57,376 nucleotides of DNA, taken from positions 1 to 57,376 of the IMG/VR virus record IMGVR_UViG_3300034407_002847, one strand, 5' to 3'. This document shows, piece after piece, positions 13,201-46,830 of the stretch. Within the stretch, counting starts at the first letter, position 1. Each line of letters opens with the position of its first letter. Source of the stretch: a virus. Its lineage: Duplodnaviria; Caudoviricetes. Position numbers and translations under genes: made by a program. The notes beneath the pieces were generated by a model. It was given only the letters and a program-made list of their open reading frames with translations, was not told the DNA's origin and searched no databases.

Positions 13201-14423
13201 TCTTTAAAGATGAATCTATAATCTCTAATGTAGTCAGAGCCGCTAGAATGTACTTCAAATCCAGCACCATCAAGAGAGCCATCGCTTAGATATCCACAAA
13301 GAGCACCACCAGTAAGTCCATCGGTGCCTGGGTCACAAAAGCCACTTGTAGCAAGATGTAATGTTTTACAATCATAAATACATTCATTAATGGTATTATA
13401 CTGAAGATCATTAATAGTAGCATTGCCGCTTACAATGATATCATTAAACCATCCATCCCACTTTAAGCTAGGACTACCCAAAGCATAAACATTGTTTTTA
13501 TGAGGAACAATACTCCCAGCAACTGTAACAGCACCTTCGTTGCCGGATGGAGTCTCTGTATGAATTCCAATATTTCCACCACTATCGATAATGAAAAAAG
13601 TGGAAACGTCATATTGATCTGGATAAGCCTCTCCTTTAGGAATATGTCTCTTAATAGAGAATGAACCAGACTCAGGATAAGATATACTGGATAAAAACGC
13701 TGTTTTCCAATTATACGAACCGTGCCCAAGATTAAAACCATCATTATGAGAAGGAGATATATCACCAGAAGACTGTATAGCACCAAAACTATGTAGGGTA
13801 TTTACACCTACGCCAAGTTTTTTATTAAGTAAATCACCAAACAATAATGGGATATTGCCAGAAGATACTTCTATATCACATAGATCATCATGATCAACGG
13901 CATGAGCACCAACATAGAAATTATAACTAGAATCTTCGCCAACGTAACTACCAGCACCATGACCAATAGCTATATTAAAGTCACCTTTTTTATTGCTCTG
14001 AAGACTAAAGTTACCAACGCCAACATTACCTGAACCAGTAGTATTTCCCGCAAGAGCATTGAATCCCACTCCCACATTCTGACTACCATAAAGATTGCAA
14101 CTTAATGCGGCAGCACCTATTGCAGTATTTTTTATACCGTCATAGTTACCATTGAGAGCATAATAACCAAAAGCAGAGTTGTCTTGGTTTGATCTACCAA
14201 TTAGATCCCTTTTTGCGATAGCTCCGTCACCAACGAGAGTGGTTCTAGTTTCAACACTAGCGACATTTTTAGCTACAACAGTCTCATTATCAAGAAAGGA
14301 ATTAACTGAGTCAACTAGATCAGTTAGACTATTTCTTAAATCTGCTGGCGATATCTGTTGAGTAGAGTTGTCTGGCAACAACAACCCTATAGAGGTAATA
14401 TACCCCTCTTTGGTGAGAATCAT
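10224..14423 (-). CDS. Large tail fibre protein with adhesin-like NxAxGxxAL repeats
   Basis: 1399 aa; three blocks of N(S/T)A(F/I)GxxAL / IFIGxxAG beta-roll repeats. Confidence 0.75.
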   Translation of the reverse strand: MILTKEGYITSIGLLLPDNSTQQISPADLRNSLTDLVDSVNSFLDNETVVAKNVASVETRTTLVGDGAIAKRDLIGRSNQDNSAFGYYALNGNYDGIKNTAIGAAALSCNLYGSQNVGVGFNALAGNTTGSGNVGVGNFSLQSNKKGDFNIAIGHGAGSYVGEDSSYNFYVGAHAVDHDDLCDIEVSSGNIPLLFGDLLNKKLGVGVNTLHSFGAIQSSGDISPSHNDGFNLGHGSYNWKTAFLSSISYPESGSFSIKRHIPKGEAYPDQYDVSTFFIIDSGGNIGIHTETPSGNEGAVTVAGSIVPHKNNVYALGSPSLKWDGWFNDIIVSGNATINDLQYNTINECIYDCKTLHLATSGFCDPGTDGLTGGALCGYLSDGSLDGAGFEVHSSGSDYIRDYRFIFKEPDQSIACLEGDSNYARSRWQSNISLEVTEGQHVQTQRVLGDRRLSLVTQSGCHGLFFRQLNNASGNITYLGTQDHVDAYSYHQSVNLIGTSGTGDYYLSVGSVDSGVSVGVDFATRISGDMVGFGLANYDDVNTDTDRFSVKVHNNTSTILEPLSVLRSNGSVGITNISVAAGAAPIVAASGTVLHVQAGDNCNVRFSSSGLQSSSLDLIANGNTRGSGVQIAYSPTSKIVDFSLIKSSGHNGELSSFISVTNAGYVGIGELSRAGSRNIVPFEPLVISHSGVSNSGTIAIREQATTPSATADFGKIYVKPKVLTGQTQSLYFRDDGGNEFNIVRNEVEDGVYGDIRANTYAGTSSPASRPTASAHHNTTLGYYALNAATTASGNIAIGSGALQYTTTGSENTVVGGGSLFKAVAPNDNTIVGTFNVGSGTDAEGNVVLGHGNLRHSASSPTGCIIIGTGIKDNVHDTIVNHTLAIGHGTAPLVYGSLSSRSFDIKDGSLSIGNSGDRHVLSISHGVSGVREITVVDLKDNVNGAAVSGALALRFTDSDGDTRQLVEFDHTAAGMSNTPSYVGPTTASPRPFVKLEGDMLLRGCVKFADGTYMDSANAQSNFAGTGLRLASASYGNVMHLEYINLQNAESLTPTVLTGESYVAVSVASGTSDLVGKMSIQELTTYISTSGTATVATNCNHVFTNSDISLGGNSGVVIIGCGTGASATGWKNSVMIGSEAGMNATTPNVNLATDTPAVFLGYRAGRDADNVSNSIFIGTNAGYLAKNSDGSIFIGQSAGTNNTMDDSIGIGEHALRGTLGSSEGGKRNIEIVAGLLDNERLLYERGHLTGKLNIQNTMAGDTDRRRLSIGDAVITPDAPLSVRLDHAISGHSGIHNVQTWYCDDVKVAQLTCDGNLETTASGVSGVIGNIIEGFLMEAIPCPDAYQSPTSGILKTKGANFIDDLNVPIVNRDHSMSIGSGAFVVAARVNGEFRPISVSCSGA

Positions 14424-14441: not shown

Positions 14442-14906
14442 CTACTTAAAGCTTATTTGGAGCGTATCTGTATCAAATTTAACACTATCTCCCGTGTAGA
14501 TTATACGAGGATTGTCTAACTGTGCGTACATTAGTAAATTCCCAGAAGCATGATTAGCTGTGTCACATATAGCAATACCAGACACGGCTCCCCAATCTAC
14601 CAAAGCTGTGTCAAAGATATAAGAACTAGCATTTCCAATAACTCCACTACCAACAGCGTTATCTGCTAATGTATAGGTCCAATAGCCATTCCCGCTTTCT
14701 GATGGATTTCCAAGGTTTATTCTAGAATAACCAGTATCAACTCCACCTATGCCAGATGGTATTTCCGGTATAGTAGAGCCAGTATCTGATTCAACAGGTA
14801 CTCCGCTTGTTAATGCAATTCCAATACCGGAGGGTTTATTAAAAATGTCACCACGAAACATGTGATGCAATAAGCCAGATTCTAAATAATCTGAAAGTGC
14901 TGCCAT
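14442..14906 (-). CDS. Phage tail-associated protein (SDYLE family)
   Basis: MAALSDYLE..LL, GYSR, DWG.V....I.D...GNLL.Y..L motifs. Confidence 0.7.
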   Translation of the reverse strand: MAALSDYLESGLLHHMFRGDIFNKPSGIGIALTSGVPVESDTGSTIPEIPSGIGGVDTGYSRINLGNPSESGNGYWTYTLADNAVGSGVIGNASSYIFDTALVDWGAVSGIAICDTANHASGNLLMYAQLDNPRIIYTGDSVKFDTDTLQISFK

Positions 14907-31476: not shown

Positions 31477-31920
31477 ATGGCAATCAGTGAACAAACCAGA
31501 CAGGCAGTATTGATCCGGGACAACTGCCGTTGTCGTGCCTGTGGATTCTCGGACACGTTGACAATGGAAATCGACCATGTTAAGCCGCGTAGTTTGGGCG
31601 GTCTGGACGATCTGGACAATCTGCAAGCTTTGTGCTCGTTCTGTAACAATACGAAGAAGAACGTGATTATCGAAGGCCTGGCAATTCAGGCACCTTGCGA
31701 GGGATTCGGGAACCAGGGGCACGTTACCGCCAAGCGTATTGCATTCCGGCAGTATGTCGCACAATCGCGAGCCAGGCAAGTTGAGGAACTGACAAACCAG
31801 GCACGAGCCTGGAAGGCAGAAGGAACCAGGGGATTGACAATCAGGAAACGCCTGGAGAATAAAACGACATCCGGAATCGTCGAAGATATCCTCAAGAATA
31901 TCCTGTCAGCTAGTCGATAG
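31477..31920 (+). CDS. HNH endonuclease
   Basis: RD..RC.ACG, EIDHVKP.S.GG....NLQ.LC..CN..K. Confidence 0.9.
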   Translation: MAISEQTRQAVLIRDNCRCRACGFSDTLTMEIDHVKPRSLGGLDDLDNLQALCSFCNNTKKNVIIEGLAIQAPCEGFGNQGHVTAKRIAFRQYVAQSRARQVEELTNQARAWKAEGTRGLTIRKRLENKTTSGIVEDILKNILSASR

Positions 31921-32395: not shown

Positions 32396-32551
32396 TTTCA
32401 TAATTGCCATTTGCGGGATCGGATTTCCATTATTGGGAATCTACCCGCTTTGCCGGAAATAGCCTTGACAAGGGAAGGGCAAGACACGGAGTGTCTTACC
32501 CGACCCTGTCGGGTAATGTTGTAGCCAGTCAGCCAGCCAGAAAGTGAGAAA

Positions 32552-32659
32552 ATGAGAAGATTTGCCGATTTTAGCCTTGCATTGTTGGAAGTAGTCGTTC
32601 CGTGTGTTGCCATGATGGGACTGATTCAACTCGTAGTGTATTTGCTATTGAATTATTGA
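32552..32659 (+). CDS. Small hydrophobic peptide
   Basis: 35-aa ORF ending 2 nt before bipartite element 1. Confidence 0.45.
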   Translation: MRRFADFSLALLEVVVPCVAMMGLIQLVVYLLLNY

Positions 32660-32661
32660 CG

Positions 32662-32737
32662 TAAACCCTTGCCACATAACGACTTACGACGTGAAAACCG
32701 GCCCCGTGAACATAAACCCTTGTACGGCAACGACTTA
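32662..32737 (+). repeat. 76-bp bipartite element copy 1
   Basis: TAAACCCTT-gccacat-AACGACTTA, 26-nt GC-rich linker, TAAACCCTT-gtacggc-AACGACTTA. Confidence 0.9.
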
Positions 32738-32904
32738 CGGCAAAAACCAAATTTCTTAAAAATAGGGAATGTTTATTTTCTTGGTAATGACGGCGGCATT
32801 CTCATCAATGGGATCTTAAAAACTTGGCGGATTGTTGTATTGCAATCCGTTCTGAAATGACGATACTACTTACAGACACGAAACAAAACAAAGGGAGCAA
32901 CACA

Positions 32905-33144
32905 ATGTGGAAGATCATCAGACAACACCGGGTAGCATACGACGCAGTTTATAACGGGGCTGATCTTATGGATTACCCTGCGTTCTTTCAGGCTCTTTAC
33001 AACTACTTCGTTTTCGGTGGCGAAATGCCTTACGGGGTCGCCAAGGCACGATTCGGAGATCCTGCCGAATGGATCATGGATCGTTCAGAAGTATGGCACG
33101 GACCCTCATCATCATGGGACGCATGTGAATCATACGAGGGATAG
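32905..33144 (+). CDS. Hypothetical protein (GEMPYGVAKAR motif)
   Basis: ATG after GGGAGCAACA; LY.YF...GEMPYG.AKAR.GDP..WI motif seen in small phage proteins. Confidence 0.7.
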   Translation: MWKIIRQHRVAYDAVYNGADLMDYPAFFQALYNYFVFGGEMPYGVAKARFGDPAEWIMDRSEVWHGPSSSWDACESYEG

Positions 33145-33207
33145 AATTGGACGCTACTAGGGAGCCGGATTTTCCGGCTCCCGTCACTCTCAACAGGAAG
33201 CAACAAG

Positions 33208-33483
33208 ATGAAATTCACACCAGAAGCCGACATTCAACACGAAATCACTCAGACCGTTTTGGAATTTGAGAACAACGACGGCAAACTGTACAATGATGCA
33301 ATGAGAACACTCAGCACACACTACAAAGAAGCTTGGAACGCTTTAGATGCCGAAGCGTTAATCTTTATCCAATTCTACAAAAGCGAATTGCAGCACAAAA
33401 ATATTAAAGTAAAACTTGCGGCGGCGACTGAAATTGTAAATGGTGCCGTTGCTGAATTTGAACTTGGGAACTTTTGGGAGTAA
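33208..33483 (+). CDS. Hypothetical protein
   Basis: ATG after AGGAAGCAACA. Confidence 0.7.
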   Translation: MKFTPEADIQHEITQTVLEFENNDGKLYNDAMRTLSTHYKEAWNALDAEALIFIQFYKSELQHKNIKVKLAAATEIVNGAVAEFELGNFWE

Positions 33484-33487
33484 GAAA

Positions 33488-33685
33488 ATGCAAACGAGCG
33501 AACTGGTAACATTGAACGGATGGGAATTCGATCTCTCAGCCTACGAAAACCGGGATCATTTCACTCACACGGTCTGGCAAGAAACTTTCGGACATTATGA
33601 CCAAATTGACACCACGGTTTACGCTGTTGCCGTAGCGAATCGCGTGGAATCCGCCGCAAAAGTTTTATGGGATATCAACCAATGA
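33488..33685 (+). CDS. Hypothetical protein
   Basis: GGAG RBS. Confidence 0.6.
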   Translation: MQTSELVTLNGWEFDLSAYENRDHFTHTVWQETFGHYDQIDTTVYAVAVANRVESAAKVLWDINQ

Positions 33686-33783
33686 TTACGGTTTTCTCAA
33701 TTGTAGGAATCTTTCTGTTTGCTCTTGTGTTCTCTTGGGCAATGGCGGAAACCATCGCAATATTGACGGATATTTTTACCTAA
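33682..33783 (+). CDS. Small hydrophobic peptide; stop codon supplied by element 2
   Basis: MITVFSIVGIFLFALVFSWAMAETIAILTDIFT*, ATGA overlap with previous gene. Confidence 0.55.
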   Translation: MITVFSIVGIFLFALVFSWAMAETIAILTDIFT

Positions 33784-33856
33784 ACCCTTGGTGGCAAACG
33801 ACTTATGTCGCCAAGCCCCGCCGCGTCGTCGTAACCTGTTAAGTGCCAACGACTTA
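33781..33856 (+). repeat. 76-bp bipartite element copy 2
   Basis: TAAACCCTT-ggtggca-AACGACTTA, 26 nt, TAACCTGTT-aagtgcc-AACGACTTA. Confidence 0.9.
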
Positions 33857-33968
33857 CGGCAATAGCTTAAACTTGCCATAAACTTGGGGAATAACTATTG
33901 ACCACGGAATAGAATGCCGATAATATACGTATCGGGTTACAATTCACTTTCTTTAAAGGTTTGACACG

Positions 33969-34145
33969 ATGAACAGTTTTGATGAGATTCAATGCGAAGA
34001 AACCCCAGACCACCAGTGGAACAGCATACTGGAAGAAACCACTTACTTTCACGAATGGATGGAATTTCAGGATCGTAAAACACAAGACGACTGGGATTGC
34101 AAGCTTTCTGATCTAAACGCAGAACTTCAGACCGTTGCCGCCTAA
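33969..34145 (+). CDS. Hypothetical protein
   Basis: 58 aa (MNSFDEIQCEE...) between promoter and hairpin. Confidence 0.55.
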   Translation: MNSFDEIQCEETPDHQWNSILEETTYFHEWMEFQDRKTQDDWDCKLSDLNAELQTVAA

Positions 34146-34158
34146 CATCCCACCACCA

Positions 34159-34181
34159 GCCGCCCTACGGGGCGGCATTTT
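34159..34181 (+). terminator. Intrinsic terminator-like hairpin
   Basis: GCCGCCC-TACG-GGGCGGC-ATTTT. Confidence 0.55.
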
Positions 34182-34194
34182 CAGGGGTTTGAAA

Positions 34195-34368
34195 ATGTCC
34201 GAATTCAAAACATGGGATTCTTACACGGAAGTTGAGAAACTTCAATGTGTGGTCAGTGATACTTACAAGGACCACTTCAACGTGCGGCCACGTCACTACA
34301 CTCCAGAACAGTGGAGCAACAAAGAATTCTTAAAGAAAGAACTTGACTGGCTTTACGATAAAGGTTAA
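34195..34368 (+). CDS. Hypothetical protein
   Basis: SD.YKD....RPR motif of small phage proteins. Confidence 0.6.
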   Translation: MSEFKTWDSYTEVEKLQCVVSDTYKDHFNVRPRHYTPEQWSNKEFLKKELDWLYDKG

Positions 34369-34378
34369 ATAACGGCAG

Positions 34379-34407
34379 GTGTCCAATCGGACCTTGTCCG
34401 ATAATGT
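34379..34407 (+). repeat. 29-bp direct repeat copy 1 (promoter-like)
   Basis: GTGTCCAATCGGACCTTGTCCGATAATGT, identical at 35650-35678. Confidence 0.85.
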
Positions 34408-34457
34408 CTGCAGTCAGCGGGCCAGCAGTCACCGAGAATTTTATAAGGGAGAAAATA

Positions 34458-34637
34458 ATGGTTGAAGCGATAATACAGCTTTTAGTAATGCTAGCAATTT
34501 TGTATGGCTGTGTATTTCACAGTTCAGGGACTACTCTGGCTTATGTACTTTGTGCGGCTTGGATGTTGACAATTATGGGTTCATTGCGTATATTTACAAG
34601 TGCGATCAAAGACATTATTGGATATCACGAGGATTGA
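34458..34637 (+). CDS. Small two-TM membrane protein
   Basis: Two hydrophobic helices, GGGAG RBS. Confidence 0.6.
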   Translation: MVEAIIQLLVMLAILYGCVFHSSGTTLAYVLCAAWMLTIMGSLRIFTSAIKDIIGYHED

Positions 34638-34641
34638 TCAA

Positions 34642-34926
34642 ATGACATTTCAGGGTTCTGTTGACGTTCTGCAAGACTACAAAAACGGCAAGAAATTAGA
34701 CCATTTTGCTTGGCCAGGCGGATATCAGATGTTCTATTATGTTTACGCGGATAATGAGCATATGCACTGCTGTCCAGACTGCACGAACAAAAAAGACTTT
34801 TATGAAGAATTCGAAGATGTAAACCGCGTCGAAGCGTTTATTAACTTGGAGGATCAAAATCTCACTTGCGATGTGTGTGAACAAAATATCCCAGCATCTT
34901 ACGGCGAAAACCAGCCTATAAATTGA
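34642..34926 (+). CDS. Small Zn-binding phage protein
   Basis: AWPGGY.M.Y, C.DC, CD.C...I...YG. Confidence 0.7.
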   Translation: MTFQGSVDVLQDYKNGKKLDHFAWPGGYQMFYYVYADNEHMHCCPDCTNKKDFYEEFEDVNRVEAFINLEDQNLTCDVCEQNIPASYGENQPIN

Positions 34927-34932
34927 TATAAG

Positions 34933-35042
34933 ACCCGGCCCCCTTGCTGTCTCAGTGTCTGTTGGTCTATTCGAATGCAAAAAAGACCGGGTGGGAGTCA
35001 CACCCACCAAAATACAGATGTTGAAGGGTATAAAAGCCGGGT
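34933..35042 (+). ncRNA. Putative multi-branched structured RNA
   Basis: Nested stems ACCCGGC/GCCGGGT and TCAGTGTCTGT/ACAGATGTTGA enclosing GGTCT/AGACC and GGTGGG/CCCACC hairpins. Confidence 0.4.
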
Positions 35043-35051
35043 AGGATCTCG

Positions 35052-35112
35052 CAGTCCTTTGTGTTTACGTGTTGCGTTGCTTCCTCACGTAGCACAAGGG
35101 ACTGGTTTTTTT
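35052..35112 (+). terminator. Intrinsic terminator
   Basis: CAGTCCTTTGTG/CACAAGGGACTG stem and T-run. Confidence 0.65.
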
Positions 35113-35123
35113 ATGGAAAAATA

Positions 35124-35312
35124 ATGAAAACTAAAATATTGTGCAAACTAATGCGTCCAAGCACTGACAGTTATCTTAAAGTGGAAATTCCTCAAGAAAT
35201 TGGTCCCCACGAAGAAGACTGGAAGAATTGGATCTTGCAAGAATTCAATGCGACGTTTATCCTAATGGACTTTTACCTTAGTGACGCCAACGGCGACAGG
35301 GAGTTGAAATGA
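35124..35312 (+). CDS. Hypothetical protein
   Basis: 62 aa, ATGA-coupled to next gene. Confidence 0.55.
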   Translation: MKTKILCKLMRPSTDSYLKVEIPQEIGPHEEDWKNWILQEFNATFILMDFYLSDANGDRELK

Positions 35313-35515
35313 GCACTGAACTGATGGCAGCAACAAACGACAGCGGAACAATTACTATGACCGGACTGTACCGAGATGGACAACCACGTTACCAGATCAC
35401 AGTAATGAGCAAAACTGGACTTTGCCGACCAGATGCTGTTTATCTGGAAGTTGACGCCGAGACCATTGCAAACATGCAAAGATGTGTTAATAACTACGAA
35501 ACTCCGGAGGTGTAA
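35309..35515 (+). CDS. Hypothetical protein
   Basis: GGGAG RBS. Confidence 0.6.
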   Translation: MSTELMAATNDSGTITMTGLYRDGQPRYQITVMSKTGLCRPDAVYLEVDAETIANMQRCVNNYETPEV

Positions 35516-35536
35516 AAGGGTTGGCAATAATCGTCC

Positions 35537-35612
35537 TAAGTCTTAGCCCCGCAAGGGGTTAGGGCCAAGGGGCCGGTTTTTTTGACGTAAGTTGTTGGTG
35601 TATATAGACTTA
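35537..35612 (-). repeat. 76-bp bipartite element copy 3 (inverted)
   Basis: Reverse complement reads TAAGTCTAT-atacacc-AACAACTTA, linker cgtcaaaaaaaccggccccttggccc, TAACCCCTT-gcggggc-TAAGACTTA. Confidence 0.8.
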
Positions 35613-35649
35613 CGTCGATTTTTGTGTATAATAGTAGGTTGATGGACAA

Positions 35650-35678
35650 GTGTCCAATCGGACCTTGTCCGATAATGT
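35650..35678 (+). repeat. 29-bp direct repeat copy 2
   Basis: Identical to 34379-34407. Confidence 0.85.
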
Positions 35679-35741
35679 TTATAGCCAGTAGTCAGCAGTT
35701 GTTGACATGGTTTCATGTTTTTGTTATAATGGAGGTGTAGG

Positions 35742-35933
35742 ATGAGGAGTAGATTAGAAGGAAGTCAACAGAAGGCAGACATTTTTGTTGGTTCTGAACT
35801 AAGTATTGGAAAAGTTGTCAAGATTCGTCACGAGGGTGTCGATGTTAAGAATAATGGCAACGAGTTTTTTGTTTCTAGGACAGCTATAGAAAAGGTTTTT
35901 GCAGATGATCAAAACACACAAACGAACAGGTAG
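35742..35933 (+). CDS. Hypothetical protein
   Basis: GGAGG RBS; TTGACA..TATAAT upstream. Confidence 0.55.
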   Translation: MRSRLEGSQQKADIFVGSELSIGKVVKIRHEGVDVKNNGNEFFVSRTAIEKVFADDQNTQTNR

Positions 35934-36099
35934 CCAAGTAAGTTTCATGTATCCAGCACGGGGAAAGGGAAATATCCTGCGACGTGTCAAGGGTGTAGTT
36001 GAAGAAAAGGGTAACGGACCAAACGGACCATTCCTTAGAGTTCTTGAGTCTAATGGCGAATACAGAACTTTCAGCACTAAGAAAATTGTGGATATGTAA
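35905..36099 (+). CDS. Hypothetical SH3-like protein
   Basis: VSF.YP...R.V.G.V....YRTFS..KI. Confidence 0.6.
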   Translation: MIKTHKRTGSQVSFMYPARGKGNILRRVKGVVEEKGNGPNGPFLRVLESNGEYRTFSTKKIVDM

Positions 36100-36512
36100 T
36101 GAAACCGTTCATTCGTAATTGTTCAACCGACAGTAAAGTGTCGGAACTTATCGATCCAACAAAGCCGGTGGAGGTTTACAAAAATCTCCATCGGGGCTGT
36201 TGGTCGGTTCGACAAAGCGGCATTGTTAGATTTCACACCTATGCAATAGCATTAGAACAGTGCCAATTCAAAGTGAGCGAATCAGGACGGCAGAGAGTTC
36301 TGAGAGAAAAACGGAAAAACGTTCACGCCTTTATTAAGGGCATCTTTATAACAAAAGGTGATCTTGTGAAAGGTGACAAGGTGACATACAATCCGTACAA
36401 AATGTCTTCGTTTAGACATCTCGGAGGACCGTGTCATAACATGAACGCTGTGATATTAAATACAGTAGGTGTTTACGAACTTCTTCCTCACCCTTATCTT
36501 GTGGAGAATTGA
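36099..36512 (+). CDS. Conserved phage hypothetical protein
   Basis: VYKNLH.G.WSV, F.V.E.GRQRVLREKRKNVHAF, VTYNPY. Confidence 0.75.
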   Translation: MKPFIRNCSTDSKVSELIDPTKPVEVYKNLHRGCWSVRQSGIVRFHTYAIALEQCQFKVSESGRQRVLREKRKNVHAFIKGIFITKGDLVKGDKVTYNPYKMSSFRHLGGPCHNMNAVILNTVGVYELLPHPYLVEN

Positions 36513-36513
36513 G

Positions 36514-36648
36514 ATGAGAATCTTAATAATTGCTAGTCTACTATTATTGCCGGGCTGTAAAGTTGTAAGCTCATTTGCAGTAGATCATAGTTTTCACAAA
36601 GAAGCGACACAAGCTAGAGCCAAAATTCAGTTTGAACATTGTTTCTAA
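36514..36648 (+). CDS. Small lipoprotein; stop codon supplied by element 4
   Basis: MRILIIASLLLLPGC lipobox-like N-terminus; TAA at 36646-36648. Confidence 0.6.
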   Translation: MRILIIASLLLLPGCKVVSSFAVDHSFHKEATQARAKIQFEHCF

Positions 36649-36721
36649 ACCCTTATGCCGTCTCGACTTACGACGGCAGGGCGGGCCGCGTCGGCCTAAA
36701 CCCTTTGCTGGTAACGACTTA
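36646..36721 (+). repeat. 76-bp bipartite element copy 4
   Basis: TAAACCCTT-atgccgt-CTCGACTTA, 26 nt, TAAACCCTT-tgctggt-AACGACTTA. Confidence 0.9.
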
Positions 36722-36829
36722 GGTCGAATACCTCATTTTGTGCATAAATGGTCTTGAGTATTTCAGGGGATGCCCTACAATGGGAAGTTACAAGCGGAAA
36801 GTTGGAAAAAACTCAAAATAGGTGAGAAT

Positions 36830-37585
36830 ATGTTCTCGAAAGCCAACGTAAAAATCCAAGAACTCGCAAAACATCCTGACCTACAAACATTTTTAGAAAA
36901 TCGTCGCAAAATTTACTCTTTCGACTTGATTTCTGGACACTCCTGCCCATTTGCTGATAAATGCCTGTCAAAGGTTATTATTGTTGACGGGCGACGTAAA
37001 ATTGTAGATGGTCGCAATACAGAATACCGATGTTTCTCAGCGTCTCAAGAAGCATTGTTGACAAACGTTTATAACAAGCGATCAAACAATTTTGAAGCAT
37101 TGAGACAAAAGACCACCAATGAGATGGTCGCGATAATTTCCGACATGATGCCAAACAATCTCGGAATATGCAGGATTCATGTTGCCGGTGATTTCTTTAA
37201 TAGGAAATATTTTCGGGCATGGCTACAAGTTGCCGAATCGAATCCTGACCGCCTGTTTTATGCCTACACCAAAAGTCTACCGTACTGGCTGGATAACCTG
37301 GGAAACATCCCAGACAATATGATTCTAACGGCTTCTTACGGTGGGCGGTGTGACCGGCTTATCCATCAGCTCAACCTACGATCTGCCACTGTAGTGTTAT
37401 CATATGAAAGGGCGGAAGAACTAGGTTTAGAAGTTGACCATGACGATTCCCATGCTGCAAATCCATTGACTAAAGACCAGGATTTTGCTCTAATGATTCA
37501 CGGACCACAACCGGCAGGCAGCGAAGCATCGGCAGCGACTTCTGAACTCAAGAAACAAGGAAGGAAGTTTTCTTACTCTAGATAG
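36830..37585 (+). CDS. GP88-like (radical-SAM-related) phage protein
   Basis: F.L..G.SCP.A..C, C..A..E, RIH..GDFF, FYAYTKS motifs. Confidence 0.75.
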   Translation: MFSKANVKIQELAKHPDLQTFLENRRKIYSFDLISGHSCPFADKCLSKVIIVDGRRKIVDGRNTEYRCFSASQEALLTNVYNKRSNNFEALRQKTTNEMVAIISDMMPNNLGICRIHVAGDFFNRKYFRAWLQVAESNPDRLFYAYTKSLPYWLDNLGNIPDNMILTASYGGRCDRLIHQLNLRSATVVLSYERAEELGLEVDHDDSHAANPLTKDQDFALMIHGPQPAGSEASAATSELKKQGRKFSYSR

Positions 37586-37670
37586 AAAGGCATCGGATGG
37601 CCGCTTTATTTTGCTTGACAGTCTATGTCGTGTTGACACACTGGCTGGAATAGCTTAGGGAAGAAAACGG

Positions 37671-37699
37671 GGCGGGAGTGTAAAAGCTCCCGCCTTTTT
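37671..37699 (+). terminator. Intrinsic terminator
   Basis: GGCGGGAG/CTCCCGCC stem and TTTTT. Confidence 0.7.
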
Positions 37700-37722
37700 C
37701 AAAATTTAACCGGAGAACTTAG

Positions 37723-37944
37723 ATGATTGCAAGAACTGCTGAAGAATTGGTTGAGAATTATCCGAGACTGCATGTATCTAGTGCGACTGAGATTATGCGA
37801 GAGCATAGTTTGGAACCATATGTGATCTGGGGCAAGGAAACAGGCGAATTGTTGGTTGATATGATTAGTCAAGAAGTTATCTGTCGTGTGGGCGATAATG
37901 GTTGTATTGATACCAAAACTTTGACAGACTGGATCGGATACTAA
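37723..37944 (+). CDS. Hypothetical protein
   Basis: GGAG RBS. Confidence 0.6.
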   Translation: MIARTAEELVENYPRLHVSSATEIMREHSLEPYVIWGKETGELLVDMISQEVICRVGDNGCIDTKTLTDWIGY

Positions 37945-38148
37945 ATGACCGCTTTAATAGACATAACCGGGCAAACGTTTGGCAAGTGGAAAGTCATTAA
38001 AAGATCCGACCAACCCAACGTATACACTCTATGGCAATGTCAATGCAAATGTGGGAAAGTTAAAAATGTCGCAAGTCAACATCTTAGATATGGCAACTCT
38101 AAACAATGTTTAAGTTGTGCAAACGTGACACGAAAAAAATCGACGTAA
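37945..38148 (+). CDS. N-terminal Zn-ribbon module of HNH/AP2 homing endonuclease type, ending at element 5
   Basis: DITGQTFGKW.V, W.C.C.CG, L..G.SK.C..C; no nuclease domain; stop is the first TAA of element 5. Confidence 0.65.
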   Translation: MTALIDITGQTFGKWKVIKRSDQPNVYTLWQCQCKCGKVKNVASQHLRYGNSKQCLSCANVTRKKST

Positions 38149-38221
38149 ACCCCTTGAGGGTAACGGGTTATGACGACCCGGCCCGCCGCGTGACCCTAAG
38201 TCCTTTGATGCCAACGACTTA
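38146..38221 (+). repeat. 76-bp bipartite element copy 5
   Basis: TAAACCCCT-tgagggt-AACGGGTTA, 26 nt, TAAGTCCTT-tgatgcc-AACGACTTA. Confidence 0.9.
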
Positions 38222-38358
38222 CAACTATTTTTGTAAATCCGGCCAAATTGTTATTTTGAAGCAATTATTAGTTACAATCTACGCCGATATAAACTACAAT
38301 GGGATTTCGCCGGGAACATGTGTTTCCAGCACTTAAAACCTTTTGGAGAATTTGAGCT

Positions 38359-39261
38359 ATGCACACTACAGCAAACGAAGCCGTTGAGACCGTCAAAGCA
38401 AAATTTGATTTCAGCGTTGACAAGTTTCCACTGTTCGGACCTGATCATATGCCGACCGACCAATACGGTTTGTTTCATTCAAAGGATGGATATTTGAAGG
38501 GTGTAAAATCCGTTTCCCCGCGTTATGTGCCGCATACTACTGAGCAGGTAGTCGCACTGACTGAAGCGGCTGCAGAAGTGTTCGACGGTCAAATTTCTGT
38601 TAAATGTCATTTCAACAATGGACACTATGTCCAAATGAAACCGACTGACGATGACCGTAGAAACATGTTCAGCGTTACCAATGGCGACAACGTGTTTCCT
38701 CGTTTTATGGTTCGCGGTGGTTTCGACGGTACTGGTTTTAAGGCTTCCATCGGATACTATCGGGACTTATGCGACAATCTGTCAATGATGAGATCCGTTA
38801 GTTCATTCTCACAGTCGATTCGTCACACTTCCGGATTGTTACCCGCAATGGACGAACTGATTGGAACTTTCTCACAGTTGAAAGAATCGTGGTTCACTCT
38901 GACCGATATGATCGCTCAGATGCAACAGCGAACAGTCGATATGGAAGAGTTCTTAGAAAAAATCTACGACGTACCTAAAGACGACGCGGGTCGTCGTGAG
39001 ATGACGATGCACAAGAACAGGAGTACATTAATCATGAATAGGCTGTGGGAAGAACTCCGGAAGACCGGGCAAATGAAGGCAAACAGCGACAATACTTCTA
39101 GTGTTCCGGCGTGGTTCGCTTACAATGCTGTGCAGGGTTTTGAGCAGCACGACGCTATTCGTCGCAACATGCCCGATACCAACCGGAAATTTGAACGGAT
39201 TATACGTTCCCAAAAATGCGGTTTTGTTTTGGACGCGGAAAGACTAGCCCTCACGGCATAG
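38359..39261 (+). CDS. DUF932-like phage/plasmid protein
   Basis: VS.RY.P, G.DG, R..C.N, IRHT, W.AYNAV..FE.H motifs. Confidence 0.7.
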   Translation: MHTTANEAVETVKAKFDFSVDKFPLFGPDHMPTDQYGLFHSKDGYLKGVKSVSPRYVPHTTEQVVALTEAAAEVFDGQISVKCHFNNGHYVQMKPTDDDRRNMFSVTNGDNVFPRFMVRGGFDGTGFKASIGYYRDLCDNLSMMRSVSSFSQSIRHTSGLLPAMDELIGTFSQLKESWFTLTDMIAQMQQRTVDMEEFLEKIYDVPKDDAGRREMTMHKNRSTLIMNRLWEELRKTGQMKANSDNTSSVPAWFAYNAVQGFEQHDAIRRNMPDTNRKFERIIRSQKCGFVLDAERLALTA

Positions 39262-39278
39262 GCTGGGATGCCTAAGTC

Positions 39279-39313
39279 AAGACCCGTTCGGAGAAATCCG
39301 GGCGGGTTTTTTT
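39279..39313 (+). terminator. Intrinsic terminator
   Basis: ACCCGTTCGGA-GAAA-TCCGGGCGGGT followed by T-run. Confidence 0.8.
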
Positions 39314-39320
39314 ATTGCCG

Positions 39321-39396
39321 TAAACCCTTACCACCAAACGAGTTAAATCGGCCCGGCCCGCCGCGTCGTCGTAAACCCTGTTATACCAACGACTTA
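39321..39396 (+). repeat. 76-bp bipartite element copy 6
   Basis: TAAACCCTT-accacca-AACGAGTTA, 26 nt, TAAACCCTG-ttatacc-AACGACTTA. Confidence 0.9.
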
Positions 39397-39583
39397 GGGC
39401 AATTGTTCTAAAAATTCTTGACATGCGTTGATTGGCCTTGTCGGTTTTAATGGGATAGCGTAGAATGGATAGCTGGTGTGTATATGGTGCAAGGAGGAAC
39501 CACTACCCGGTTATTCATTCATAGTTATTCACTCGGTGAACTATTAGTTCATTGTGAATGTTGGATGGCCGGGTATTTTTTTT

Positions 39584-39668
39584 GGCCGGGTGGTGGAATA
39601 GGCAGACACTCAGGACTTAAAATCCTGTGCCCGTAATGGGCGTGCGGGTTCAAGTCCCGTCCCGGCTA
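39584..39668 (+). tRNA. tRNA-Leu(TAA)
   Basis: Cloverleaf, CAGGA-CTTAAAA-TCCTG anticodon arm, long variable arm, TTCAAGT T-loop. Confidence 0.95.
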
Positions 39669-39674
39669 ACAACA

Positions 39675-39747
39675 GGGTCTATAGCTCAACGGTTAGAGCA
39701 GCGAACTCATAATTCGTTGGCTGTAGGTTCGAATCCTACTAGACCCA
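39675..39747 (+). tRNA. tRNA-CAT, probably Ile2 (Met not excluded)
   Basis: GGGTCTA/TAGACCC acceptor, GCGAA-CTCATAA-TTCGT anticodon arm; lacks initiator GGG/CCC stem. Confidence 0.9.
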
Positions 39748-39879
39748 ATCCTTCCTCCCGGTTACCCGCAAGCTCCCCGTTTGCATCATGGGTGACCGGG
39801 TTTTTTTGTGCCCTGATTTGTCTTACCGCATCCCTGCGGATACGCGACTTGTTTAACTGCCAGCGGAAAATGGGCAAAA

Positions 39880-39953
39880 TAGGGATGGTGGGACTTGAAC
39901 CCACGACCACCGCTTTATAAGAACGACACTCTTACCAACTGAGTTACATCCCT
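39880..39953 (-). tRNA. tRNA-Ile(TAT)
   Basis: AGGGATG/CATCCCT acceptor, TCGTT-CTTATAA-AGCGG anticodon arm, GTGGG-TTCAAGT-CCCAC T-arm. Confidence 0.88.
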
Positions 39954-44818: not shown

Positions 44819-45796
44819 ATGTATAACTTATGTTGTATTAGCAACGAACTAAAAGACCAAGGCTACAAGTTTCAAACCATGACTTGGAAGCGTTACAATC
44901 AATTAGTAGATTCAGAGGGTCAGCAGTTTGCTTTAAACGAGTTGGGCAGTCGCTGGCTCAACAATGTAATCGTTACTCGTTTGTGTATAGAACACTGTCA
45001 CAGAGAAGGTTGGGGATACCGTGTATCTTCTTCGTTGTTCCCTGTTCTGACTCATCCAGATTTTGAGTACACTATAAAAGATGTGCCGCAGTACGAGCAG
45101 ATCATGGAGGAATTTCGTAACATTGTGTGTTGCAACGAGACTTGGAACGTGCGTTTGTCTACGCATCCTGACCAGTTCAACGTGCTTGCCAGCGAAAACC
45201 AGTCAGCAGTAGACAAGACTATCGCAGAACTTAACCATCATGGTTGGGTTATGGACAAGCTAGGTTGCGAACGTAGTTACCAAAATCCTATCAACATTCA
45301 TGTCAATAATACCAAGGGCGATCTTGACGACATCGCTGCTCGCTTTATGTCTAACCTAAACAAGACTGATCAGAGCGTACAGTCTCGTCTAGTGATTGAG
45401 AACGAGGATAAAGGTTGTTGGAATGTAGATAATCTTCTCCTTCACTTTTTTGACAATTACGGCATTCCAATTACTTATGACAATTTACATGACAAATGTA
45501 ATAATTCTGTTGTAGGTAATATGTCAGACTGTGCTGACACTTGGCCTTGTAAACCACTGTTTCACTACAGCGAGTCAGCACTAGGCTCGACCAATCCACG
45601 CAAGCACGCGGATATGCCTACAGATTGTCCTGTTGAGATTTTATACGATTGGGATATTGAACTCAAATCTAAAGATGCAGCGGTTCGTGCTTGTATTGAG
45701 TTGCAACCACTCAAGATTGGTGAAACACTTGCCGAGCCTTTGCGACATGGACTAAACATTAAAGATTGTTTTATCTATGAAGGAGTTGACAAATGA
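44819..45796 (+). CDS. uvsE: UV damage endonuclease
   Basis: LCCIS, YRVSS.LFP, RLSTHPDQF.VLAS, NIHV, RLVIENEDK, YD.LH..CN, HYSES, HAD, IE.K.KD.A. Confidence 0.92.
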   Translation: MYNLCCISNELKDQGYKFQTMTWKRYNQLVDSEGQQFALNELGSRWLNNVIVTRLCIEHCHREGWGYRVSSSLFPVLTHPDFEYTIKDVPQYEQIMEEFRNIVCCNETWNVRLSTHPDQFNVLASENQSAVDKTIAELNHHGWVMDKLGCERSYQNPINIHVNNTKGDLDDIAARFMSNLNKTDQSVQSRLVIENEDKGCWNVDNLLLHFFDNYGIPITYDNLHDKCNNSVVGNMSDCADTWPCKPLFHYSESALGSTNPRKHADMPTDCPVEILYDWDIELKSKDAAVRACIELQPLKIGETLAEPLRHGLNIKDCFIYEGVDK

Positions 45797-46029: not shown

Positions 46030-46232
46030 CTTGGTACACAACAACAGAGTGGATTGCTCTACAGTTTAATGGGAAACACTTAGAAGAATTAAATGAAAAT
46101 GAAACGAATATAGCAAAAAGACTAATGGATGAAGGTTATTTAGTTTCTCATCAAATTAGTGTAGGTGATGGTTCGCAGAAAGTTAGCGTTACTAAGCTAT
46201 GCTATACTCATAGACCAGAAGTTAGTGATTAA
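46023..46232 (+). CDS. Hypothetical protein
   Basis: EL.E.E.NI...L...GY motif, similar to 51852..52046. Confidence 0.55.
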   Translation: MLTWYTTTEWIALQFNGKHLEELNENETNIAKRLMDEGYLVSHQISVGDGSQKVSVTKLCYTHRPEVSD

Positions 46233-46251
46233 TAACCTTGGAGATGAAGTT

Positions 46252-46830
46252 ATGATAACTAAAAATGAGTTGCGTCGAACTGCTCATGATAACCGCAATA
46301 AACAAGAAAACAAAGACGAACTAAGTGAATGGATTGTAGGGGCGTTCATGTCCTTGCCTGAATATACTGCTGCATCAACTGTTATGTTTTATATTGATGT
46401 CAGGAGTGAGGTCAGGACTCGCCATGTTTTACCAGAGTCACTTAACTCTGGCAAGAAGATAGTAGTGCCTTGGTGTAATCATGATGGAGAGTTAGAGCTT
46501 TTCCATCTTCAAAGTATGCATGAATTAGAAACTGGTATGTATGGTATTCTAGAACCTTCTCAAGAATTCCGTCTTCTTCCACGGAAGCAGGTTCAATTAA
46601 AAGAATTAGATCTCATAATGGTTCCGGGCGTAGGGTTTGATTCTCGTGGTGCAAGAATGGGTCATGGTAAAGGATACTATGATAAGTTGCTGGAAAATGC
46701 TCGACCTGACACATCATTGGTGGCATTAGCATTTGAATGTCAAATGTTTCAAGAGATTCCAGTAGCACCTCATGATGTATTTATGGATAAGATCATCACA
46801 GAGAAAAAATGCTATGACAACATTGCATAG
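46252..46830 (+). CDS. 5-formyltetrahydrofolate cyclo-ligase
   Basis: K.ELR, SEV.T, YGILEP, DLI.VPGVGFD..G.R.G.GKGYYD, HD..MD.IITE. Confidence 0.92.
   Translation: MITKNELRRTAHDNRNKQENKDELSEWIVGAFMSLPEYTAASTVMFYIDVRSEVRTRHVLPESLNSGKKIVVPWCNHDGELELFHLQSMHELETGMYGILEPSQEFRLLPRKQVQLKELDLIMVPGVGFDSRGARMGHGKGYYDKLLENARPDTSLVALAFECQMFQEIPVAPHDVFMDKIITEKKCYDNIA

Follow-up and report, generated by a model that had tools for sequence, protein, structure and literature searches.

The window analysed here is a stretch of 57,376 bases from an uncultured tailed phage (IMG/VR record IMGVR_UViG_3300034407_002847; Duplodnaviria, Caudoviricetes), whose early region is punctuated by copies of a bipartite palindromic site, several of which begin with the stop codon of a small open reading frame (ORF). 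We lean towards reading this site as the upstream module of a conserved early-promoter cassette, about 190 bp long, that is carried by a large group of uncultured marine phages. The paired palindromes recur in related phages with a prevailing orientation, their arms are conserved without covariation, sigma70-type promoter sequences follow them at stepped distances, and the break points of rearrangements between relatives cluster at their borders. Binding of a protein to the palindromes, an effect of this protein on transcription, and exchange of cassettes by homologous recombination, as in the promoter-early stem-loop (PeSL) elements of T4-type phages, would complete this picture.

The window is 34 % complete as judged by CheckV. 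Structural and packaging genes occupy the minus strand up to about 31.8 kb, and small ORFs, the majority of them without a family match in Pfam or PHROGs, fill the plus strand from about 31.5 kb. No close named relative was found for the early region or for the terminase, whose best matches are about 26 % identical (Microcystis and Bacillus phages). Seawater and marine metagenome runs from 10 studies contain the window nearly complete, and some of them are perhaps the source of the record. The comparisons below involve G001, a close relative with 76–84 % amino acid identity to the window, G002, a complete relative of 166.8 kb with 53 % identity (also locus L015), and a family set of 121 sequences consisting of 119 IMG/VR loci, the window segment and G001.

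Paired palindromes and the promoters that follow them

Each half-site is a 25-bp pseudo-palindrome, TAAACCCTT-N7-AACGACTTA, and two half-sites, which start 51 bp apart in the window, enclose a GC-rich core. Among 196 junctions from relatives the spacing is 53 bp in 100 copies, 52 bp in 24 and 51 bp in 21, with no second half called in 41. The four arms, arranged in the order forward, inverted, forward, inverted, share the consensus TAA[A/G][C/T]C[C/G]TT, and across 165 copies they are variants of one 9-mer, the left arms being TAAACCCTT or TAAGTCCTT and the right arms AACGACTTA or AAGGACTTA. The information content is two-fold symmetric (cGTAA..C.TT / AA.G..TTAcG), and the nhmmer model of the site also matches its own reverse strand. 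In the window, half-sites are restricted to positions 32662–39396 (Table 1). The five forward copies, all starting with TAA, have a mean column identity of 72 % when aligned, and N7 and core have diverged between copies within one phage genome. The remaining copy (site 3) has a T-run in its spacer, and the gene upstream of it (35309–35515) stops about 20 nt before. Upstream of site 6, gene 38359–39261 ends 59 nt earlier, with an intrinsic-terminator-like hairpin (39279–39310) in between. Readings of the arms as sigma54 or sigma70 elements were dropped on inspection by eye, except for a TTGACG-17-TAGACT match in site 3.

At least 119 IMG/VR stretches contain the exact half-site. In them, an nhmmer model built from 14 copies gave 494 matches, which collapse to 297 non-overlapping places; 221 elements are full-length, and 205 of these begin with TAA. 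In loci with three or more elements, 167 of 201 elements share the majority orientation, and successive copies on the same strand are separated by a median of 1258 bp; G001 has nine copies in the orientation of the genes and one reversed. The complete relative G002 gave one match at 2 mismatches versus one in a reversed-pattern control. In its early region, the type of promoter that elsewhere follows the site, TTGAC...CGATA...TATAAT, is preceded by repeated GC-rich hairpins bearing T-runs. Apart from tRNAs, no DNA match to the region or to a single element was found in the GenBank phage collection, no Rfam family matches the site, and literature searches with the strings TAAACCCTT and AACGACTTA, or for palindromes of Planctomycetes phages, returned nothing relevant.

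Outside phage collections, the exact half-site was found in 65 stretches of a species-level genome collection, compared with a rough chance estimate of about 17, and 27 of these stretches come from Planctomycetota by their titles. Large chromosomal contigs contain single half-sites, and full elements occur in small contigs of metagenome-assembled genomes from many phyla, which may be phage DNA. A relaxed 15-base pattern gave 33 matches in five such genomes versus none in the reversed control, and 22 matches, distributed over 15 genomes, in 200 further Planctomycetota genomes versus 3 in the control. The Phycisphaerales genome G005 (L201–L228) and the Planctomycetia genome G003 (L205–L230) carry the 25-bp palindrome 10–14 times, within dispersed repeats of about 300 nt that are flanked by unrelated genes (the loci are partly N-masked); two half-sites of G005 lie 84 nt apart. 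We regard these palindromes as a lead to a host or to a shared mobile element, not as a host assignment; their enrichment in some Planctomycetota genomes makes this lead, which extends to the binding protein, a testable one.

As to whether the site is kept as a fold or as a sequence, RNAalifold predicted no pairs for 14 copies. In 191 copies, non-redundant at 85 %, none of the top 30 mutual-information pairs is a long-range Watson–Crick pair; all of them link adjacent columns or arise from gaps. At the variable arm positions, pairing stays at the permuted level, both in the inner arm pair and within each half, and flank positions 1 and 3 beside the arms show no covariation relative to permutation. 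Since the arms do not covary, we conclude from the alignments that they would be read as sequence on duplex DNA. It is unlikely that the site, or the GC-rich core together with the inner arms, acts in the transcript by folding into a terminator, a processing site or a 3′ stabiliser at the close of every early unit, a role that would account for the stops next to it. Such an element would occupy the same position as the GC-rich T-run hairpins of G002, in the consensus the inner arms match each other as complements (AAGGACTTA with TAAGTCCTT), 11 % of the cores have folding z scores below −2 (mean −0.71), and pairing at flank positions 6–7, inside the core, exceeds that in each of 500 permutations. 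However, besides the missing consensus structure, the missing covariation of arms and nearest flanks and the negative Rfam search, conserved mismatches are retained (flank position 1 is a G-G mismatch in 63 of 150 copies), most copies lack a U-run, and a tight, stepped distance to the promoter is unexpected for a terminator.

This distance was measured to promoters defined as sequence matches scored out of 12, rather than by activity. In 195 elements, 107 promoter-like matches of at least 9/12 start at +100 to +139 from the first TAA, while upstream bins hold 0–8 per 10 nt. Counted from the second TAA, 112 of 166 elements are followed by a promoter of at least 9/12, 24 of them by one of 12/12, and 54 have none at this threshold. 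The distance from the second TAA to the start of the −35 hexamer is 66 nt in 20 elements, 76 or 77 nt in 13 each, 56 nt in 4 and 86 nt in 3 (see Table 1 for the window). The intervening sequences are diverse, with 17 clusters among 20 sequences in the 66 class, 20 among 26 in the 76/77 class and 5 among 6 in the 56 class, at a median identity of 0.41–0.42. A 10–11-nt motif, CTTTnnGAAT, seen by eye between site and promoter, is present twice in the 76/77 class and once in the 66 class. The early promoters share a spacer motif, TTGACA-N3-4-[GT]CCGATA-N8-9-TATAAT (loci L019–L126), also found in the site-less G002 (L015 1–18500). Contigs from RNA libraries cover parts of the early region at a low depth that cannot give transcript starts, ends or strand.

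The half-sites might themselves be tandem promoters for a small sigma factor of the phage, of the extracytoplasmic function (ECF) type, with GTAAAC as a −35-like and CGAC as a −10-like element. A 168-amino acid protein encoded at 29081–29590 on the minus strand does match Sigma70_r2 (26.4 bits versus a cutoff of 24), its gene is kept in 30 of the loci, AAC and CGAC recall ECF promoters, and the sites share one orientation relative to the genes. This is nevertheless very improbable: AAC and CGAC are separated by 13 nt compared with about 16 in ECF promoters, the information content has two-fold symmetry, the sites are restricted to an early region that already holds consensus sigma70 promoters, and in G002 the sigma gene (61 % identity) is present without any sites. 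The sigma-like gene probably encodes the phage's own middle or late sigma factor. It is followed by a gene for a 271-amino acid protein (28276–29094, minus strand) with nothing above the Pfam cutoff, and the pair is kept in 30 fetched loci and in G002.

Gene ends and rearrangements at the site borders

The preliminary description of this DNA held that upstream genes use the first TAA of the site as their stop codon, and viewed the left edge as a capture or recombination junction resembling that of integron cassettes. Tracing of the ORFs in the sequence confirms the coincidence: ORFs 33682–33783, 36514–36648 and 37945–38148 stop on the opening TAA of three of the five forward sites, and ORF 32552–32659 stops 2 nt before TAA 32662, on a TGA (32657–32659) within TTGACG, the conserved flank to the left. 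An ATG-initiated ORF of at least 33 amino acids ends on 3 of the 5 site TAAs in the window, versus 29 of 597 other plus-strand TAAs between 31501 and 57376 (binomial p = 0.001). Stop sharing also exceeds chance in the related phages, but by a factor of only about two, since ATG-ORFs of at least 40 amino acids end on 16 of 180 site TAAs and on 641 of 14176 other TAAs (p = 0.008).

A finer view comes from 196 unique junctions preceded by 400 nt or more of sequence, in each of which the nearest upstream ATG-ORF of at least 40 amino acids was considered. The stop falls on the TAA in 17 and on a flank TGA at −5 in 12; 55 stops in all lie within 13 nt, 15 ORFs read 8–53 nt into the site, and at 21 junctions the nearest 300 nt contain none. 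These counts are lower bounds, because the threshold overlooks very small genes such as 33682–33783. The TGA at −5 is present in 44 of the 196 copies. The 42 ORFs that reach the edge are distributed over the three frames as 18, 18 and 6, the rare frame being the one without an edge stop (chi-square p = 0.03). A caution applies here: where a compact genome abuts a conserved element beginning with TAA, sharing of stop codons with it is to be expected, and on its own such sharing is no indication of a capture site.

The ORFs concerned are short. Orthologues of the 33- and 44-amino acid ORFs in G001 have 82 % and 80 % amino acid identity, their substitutions are distributed over the codon positions (5, 1, 5 and 7, 3, 13) in a pattern like that of a neighbouring Pfam-supported gene (14, 9, 32), and both follow the preceding gene closely, ORF 33682 starting within the preceding stop (ATGA) and ORF 36514 one nucleotide after the preceding TGA. 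By these sequence features the two (33682–33783 and 36514–36648) look like real genes.

The ORF at 37945 had been thought to be the N-terminal Zn module of an HNH/AP2 endonuclease, cut at the site. This is not borne out. The module is whole within the 67 residues, because residues 1–64 match phrog_374 (HNH endonuclease, E 3e-14) and the unit recurs 3–11 times in larger proteins; Pfam gave no match for the ORF. An exhaustive search with it returned 23,427 proteins at E ≤0.001, the best 150 of which are 232–1039 amino acids long and contain 3–11 copies of the Zn unit, a ranking that favours multi-copy proteins and is uninformative on the frequency of single-unit ones. A word-based protein search gave one match, which diverges after residue 43, and nothing among longer proteins. 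The homologue in G001 is longer but stands alone: beyond the 64 alignable residues it continues to 76 amino acids with its own stop, and another gene, again of 76 amino acids, follows and ends 9 nt before the next site; in the window the flank is reached through 21 unrelated bases. Only the last 8 codons of the 67-amino acid ORF differ from G001, through a rearrangement that ends at the flank of the site. In different phages, the distance from a homologue of this one gene family to the next site is 1, 18, 206, 507 or 1352 nt, which implies that gene and site do not travel together.

Rearrangements of this kind are recurrent. Three indels or replacements between the window and G001 end within a few nucleotides of a site TAA. 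G001 lacks the 35-amino acid ORF, and GAGAAATTGACGTAAACC joins its leader directly to the site, with about 5 nt shared at the break (window 32556–32654). A 280-nt insert with a 90-amino acid gene separates the site in G001 from the orthologue of the 44-amino acid gene, which has its own TAG; at site 4 of the window the TA of this gene's stop is fused to the site TAA and the usual flank is gone. In an independent pair, L047 carries a 153-nt insert, an ORF of 51 codons, where the gene of L083 stops on the flank TGA. Of 43 pure indels in the 121 sequences, including some duplicates among near-identical loci, 4 end at most 16 nt upstream of the TAA and none is a gain or loss of the element alone. 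The ends of alignments of at least 250 nt (n = 694) accumulate at −10 to +9 (27 ends) and +80 to +89 (14 ends), other 10-nt bins holding about 1–7. Aligned blocks that cover the site with one flank are equal on both sides, 21 running from the left edge downstream and 21 from upstream to the right edge; a further 10 end on the left edge, and 1 begins on the right one. Contigs from a seawater DNA run depart from the window sequence at 32655/32658, 36706 and 39396, a weak indication that comes from contigs only.

Module borders are thus found next to or inside the sites. The part of the earlier proposal that stands is that the left edge is a preferred end point of rearrangements, as seen with both indels and block ends. 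The right edge is a break point too, and breaks at both edges fit exchange via the shared homology of about 80 bp, or turnover around a conserved island, but not capture at one edge.

Under site-specific capture, a tyrosine (or other) recombinase would use the 9-N7-9 arms as its core-type sites and both insert and excise ORF cassettes at the left edge, much as happens at the attC sites of integrons. Inverted 9-bp arms around a 7-bp spacer resemble recombinase core sites, ORF-precise indels adjoin the left flank, G001 has ‘empty’ units in which the leader runs straight into the site, and several Planctomycetota genomes hold the same palindrome within dispersed repeats. We nevertheless find capture quite improbable. 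The scans of window ORFs turned up no recombinase (they did not cover all 39 ORFs of at least 150 amino acids, and the window is about 34 % of the genome). N7 differs between sites of one genome, which would block strand exchange by a tyrosine recombinase. RNAalifold, mutual information and permutation found no attC-type fold, and each unit has its own promoter. The left break points of indels lie at ordinary stop codons with 2–5 nt of microhomology and no second site, right edges break as well, and gene–site distances vary from 1 to 1352 nt within one gene family. The likeness to integrons put forward earlier cannot be upheld on this evidence.

The same data bear on a selfish miniature mobile element that would have spread into the intergenic DNA of phages and some hosts; the shared stops would then be a by-product of its insertion at TA or TAA. 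The element begins and ends with TA, one indel has TA microhomology at the edge, and the host palindromes lie in dispersed repeats with unrelated flanks. Yet no indel consists of the element alone, the copies are fixed in position and stepped in distance relative to the promoters and have a common orientation, and those of one phage have diverged in N7 and core; we consider this explanation highly doubtful.

A possible early-promoter cassette

According to the promoter-cassette reading, a dimeric or tetrameric DNA-binding protein would bind the paired palindromes on double-stranded DNA and, once bound, act on the sigma70-type promoter downstream, insulate this promoter from the upstream unit, or both. 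The palindromes would form a paired operator, and the cassette would in addition mark where mosaic modules border on each other. The cassettes, about one per 1.3 kb, would punctuate the immediate-early region and mark the ends of transcription units. Their conserved left end supplies stops in two frames, the TAA at 0 and, in about a fifth of the copies, the TGA at −5. Deletions, insertions of small ORFs and exchanges between cassettes would be tolerated up to the conserved site but not into it, and a gene that has lost its stop would run on to the first one the site supplies. Genes would end in the site, then, because its edge offers stops in two frames and because changes halt there.

Several points weigh against this reading. 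No DNA-binding match was found among the early ORFs scanned with Pfam and PHROGs, and the sigma-like gene with its 271-amino acid neighbour is also present in the site-less G002. A distance of 16 bp, as between the arm centres, is uncommon for a simple helix-turn-helix dimer. The loci share phylogeny and are not independent, only exact duplicates having been taken out, and since the copies are alike, alignments cross the adjacent copy, so that the pile-ups at the edges cannot locate the exchange. The steps of about 10 bp between promoter classes may reflect the copy number of CTTTnnGAAT, helical phasing, or both. Finally, given the pairing of flank positions 6–7 and the low folding z scores of some cores, the core may in some copies have a role as an RNA or DNA hairpin.

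A bolder version, which we consider rather improbable, would make the paired palindromes the docking site of a dedicated protein that both sets promoter activity or insulation and guides the exchange of ORFan cassettes between co-infecting phages. If it were true, a large clade of uncultured marine phages would have in common a protein-marked gene-cassette system, whose site is also found within dispersed repeats of some Planctomycetota genomes. Already as a promoter module, the cassette offers a sequence handle on immediate-early transcription and ORFan turnover in widespread uncultured marine phages. It is readily recognised, delimits early units, helps to annotate tiny genes whose stops lie inside it and traces the exchange of modules.

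Table 1. Site copies, promoter matches and site-adjacent ORFs of the window
Feature	Position	Strand	Remarks
Site 1	32658–32737	+	flank GACG; half-sites 32662–32686 and 32713–32737
Site 2	33777–33856	+	half-sites 33781–33805 and 33832–33856; TAA ends ORF 33682–33783
Site 3, reversed or degenerate	35537–35612		arm pairs 35537–35561 and 35588–35612, 51 bp apart; minus-strand nhmmer match, E 5.8e-9
Site 4	36646–36721	+	half-sites 36646–36670 and 36697–36721; TAA ends ORF 36514–36648; left flank non-consensus TTTC
Site 5	38142–38221	+	half-sites 38146–38170 and 38197–38221; TAA ends ORF 37945–38148
Site 6	39317–39396	+	half-sites 39321–39345 and 39372–39396; terminator-like hairpin before, tRNA genes after
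Sigma70-like promoter TTGACC-17-TAATAT	33898–33926	+	66 nt after second TAA of site 2
Sigma70-like promoter TTGAGT-16-TACAAT	36754–36781	+	57 nt after second TAA of site 4
Weak sigma70-like match	38271–38300	+	3′ of site 5
Sigma70-like promoter TTGTCG-17-TAGAAT	39438–39466	+	66 nt after second TAA of site 6
ORF, 35 amino acids	32552–32659	+	hydrophobic; ends on flank TGA; absent from G001
ORF, 33 amino acids	33682–33783	+	hydrophobic; 38 amino acids from alternative start 33667; stop TAA 33781–33783; same stop arrangement in G001
ORF, 44 amino acids	36514–36648	+	lipobox-like LLLLPGC, read from the translation; stop TAA 36646–36648
ORF, 67 amino acids	37945–38148	+	Cys-rich module; phrog_374 positions 191–256 of 617; stop TAA 38146–38148

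Neighbouring features and known systems

A second repeat family is present in the same region, at 32490–32551, 34379–34440 and 35650–35700 of the window and at 13718–13780, 14734–14785, 16837 and 21215 of G001 (reverse-complement coordinates). It consists of GTGTC, a hairpin of 6–7 bp (e.g., ATCGGAC CTT GTCCGAT), TAATGT and a C/A/G-rich text like AGCCAGTCAGC, and ends in GAGAAA ahead of a small ORF; in G001 two copies run directly into a bipartite site with no ORF in between. Rfam has no match for it. The rightward arm opens with a gene for an HNH endonuclease of 147 amino acids (31477–31920, plus strand) near the Cys-rich module ORF, which may point to homing-type gene turnover in this region. 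Immediately upstream of that ORF, the segment 37712–37944 has a depth of 237–297 in one seawater DNA run versus about 20 elsewhere, i.e., about tenfold, and several short contigs of this run diverge at 37712 and 37944. This suggests that the 73-amino acid ORF 37723–37944 is common to other, more abundant genomes.

Four tRNA genes (Leu-TAA, Met-CAT, Ile-TAT on the minus strand and Arg-TCT) lie at 39583–39953 and 54790–54862, the first two directly 3′ of site 6 and its promoter. Auxiliary genes encode a GDP-mannose 4,6-dehydratase (27106–28269, minus strand, E 2e-103), a UvdE-type UV endonuclease (44819–45796, plus strand, E 3e-35) and a 5-formyltetrahydrofolate cyclo-ligase (46165–46830, plus strand, E 3e-41).

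Among known systems, integron attC sites likewise form a repeated boundary at the 3′ end of small ORFs, which may stop inside it, in a region of variable gene content. The attC sites are imperfect inverted repeats that fold as single strands, with pairing maintained as the sequence varies; their core sites are RYYYAAC and GTTRRRY, and integron cassettes are promoterless and accompanied by adjacent IntI, attI and Pc. In contrast, the present consensus TAAACCCTT-N7-AACGACTTA has no such cores, and there is no single-strand fold and no integrase among the ORFs scanned; each unit has a promoter of its own and breaks occur at both edges. Miniature inverted-repeat transposable elements (MITEs) and repetitive extragenic palindromic (REP) elements are hairpin-forming palindromes and would leave filled and empty sites differing by one element, a situation encountered in none of the 43 indels, and covariation is lacking; for the host genomes, with copies inside dispersed repeats, a MITE or a REP-like element is conceivable.

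Other parallels come from protein-binding sites. Some activator and repressor sites in phase with their promoters, such as the Fis sites at rrnB P1 and class I CRP sites, are dimer-type palindromes placed on one helix face, in steps of about 10 bp, upstream of a sigma70 promoter. The present sites lie further upstream, with centres near −90/−100 and −142/−152 (by arithmetic from the promoter offsets), and are always paired with a GC-rich core. In cluster A mycobacteriophages, the stoperators (L5 gp71; see PMC9283540) are likewise a repressor site in many copies, distributed through the phage genome in one orientation relative to transcription and located in short intergenic spaces near gene ends. 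Stoperators differ in being single, asymmetric 13-bp sites bound by a monomer, whereas the sites described here are paired, symmetric and 25 bp long, are confined to the early region and are tied to a downstream promoter.

The PeSLs of T4-type phages come closest to the proposed cassette. PeSLs are small repeated cassettes of the plastic early region that begin at the stop codon of the upstream gene, contain a strong sigma70-like promoter and lie upstream of ORFans; their stable stem-loop serves as a terminator or attenuator, and recombination between cassettes gives mini-circles (Arbiol et al. 2010, PMC2839356; Comeau et al. 2014, PMC4122927). Compared with PeSLs, the marine phages, which are not T4-like (as noted, the terminase is about 26 % identical to its best matches), have a sequence-conserved pair of palindromes without covariation in place of the stem-loop terminator, most copies being without a T-run, and these palindromes stand 56–77 nt upstream of the −35 hexamer at stepped distances. 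The two have further features in common: both have a sigma70-like promoter within the repeated unit (here as a sequence match of at least 9/12 in 112 of 166 elements), both start at the stop codon of the upstream gene and precede ORFans in a plastic early region, and both coincide with the break points of the insertions, deletions and replacements that distinguish related phages.

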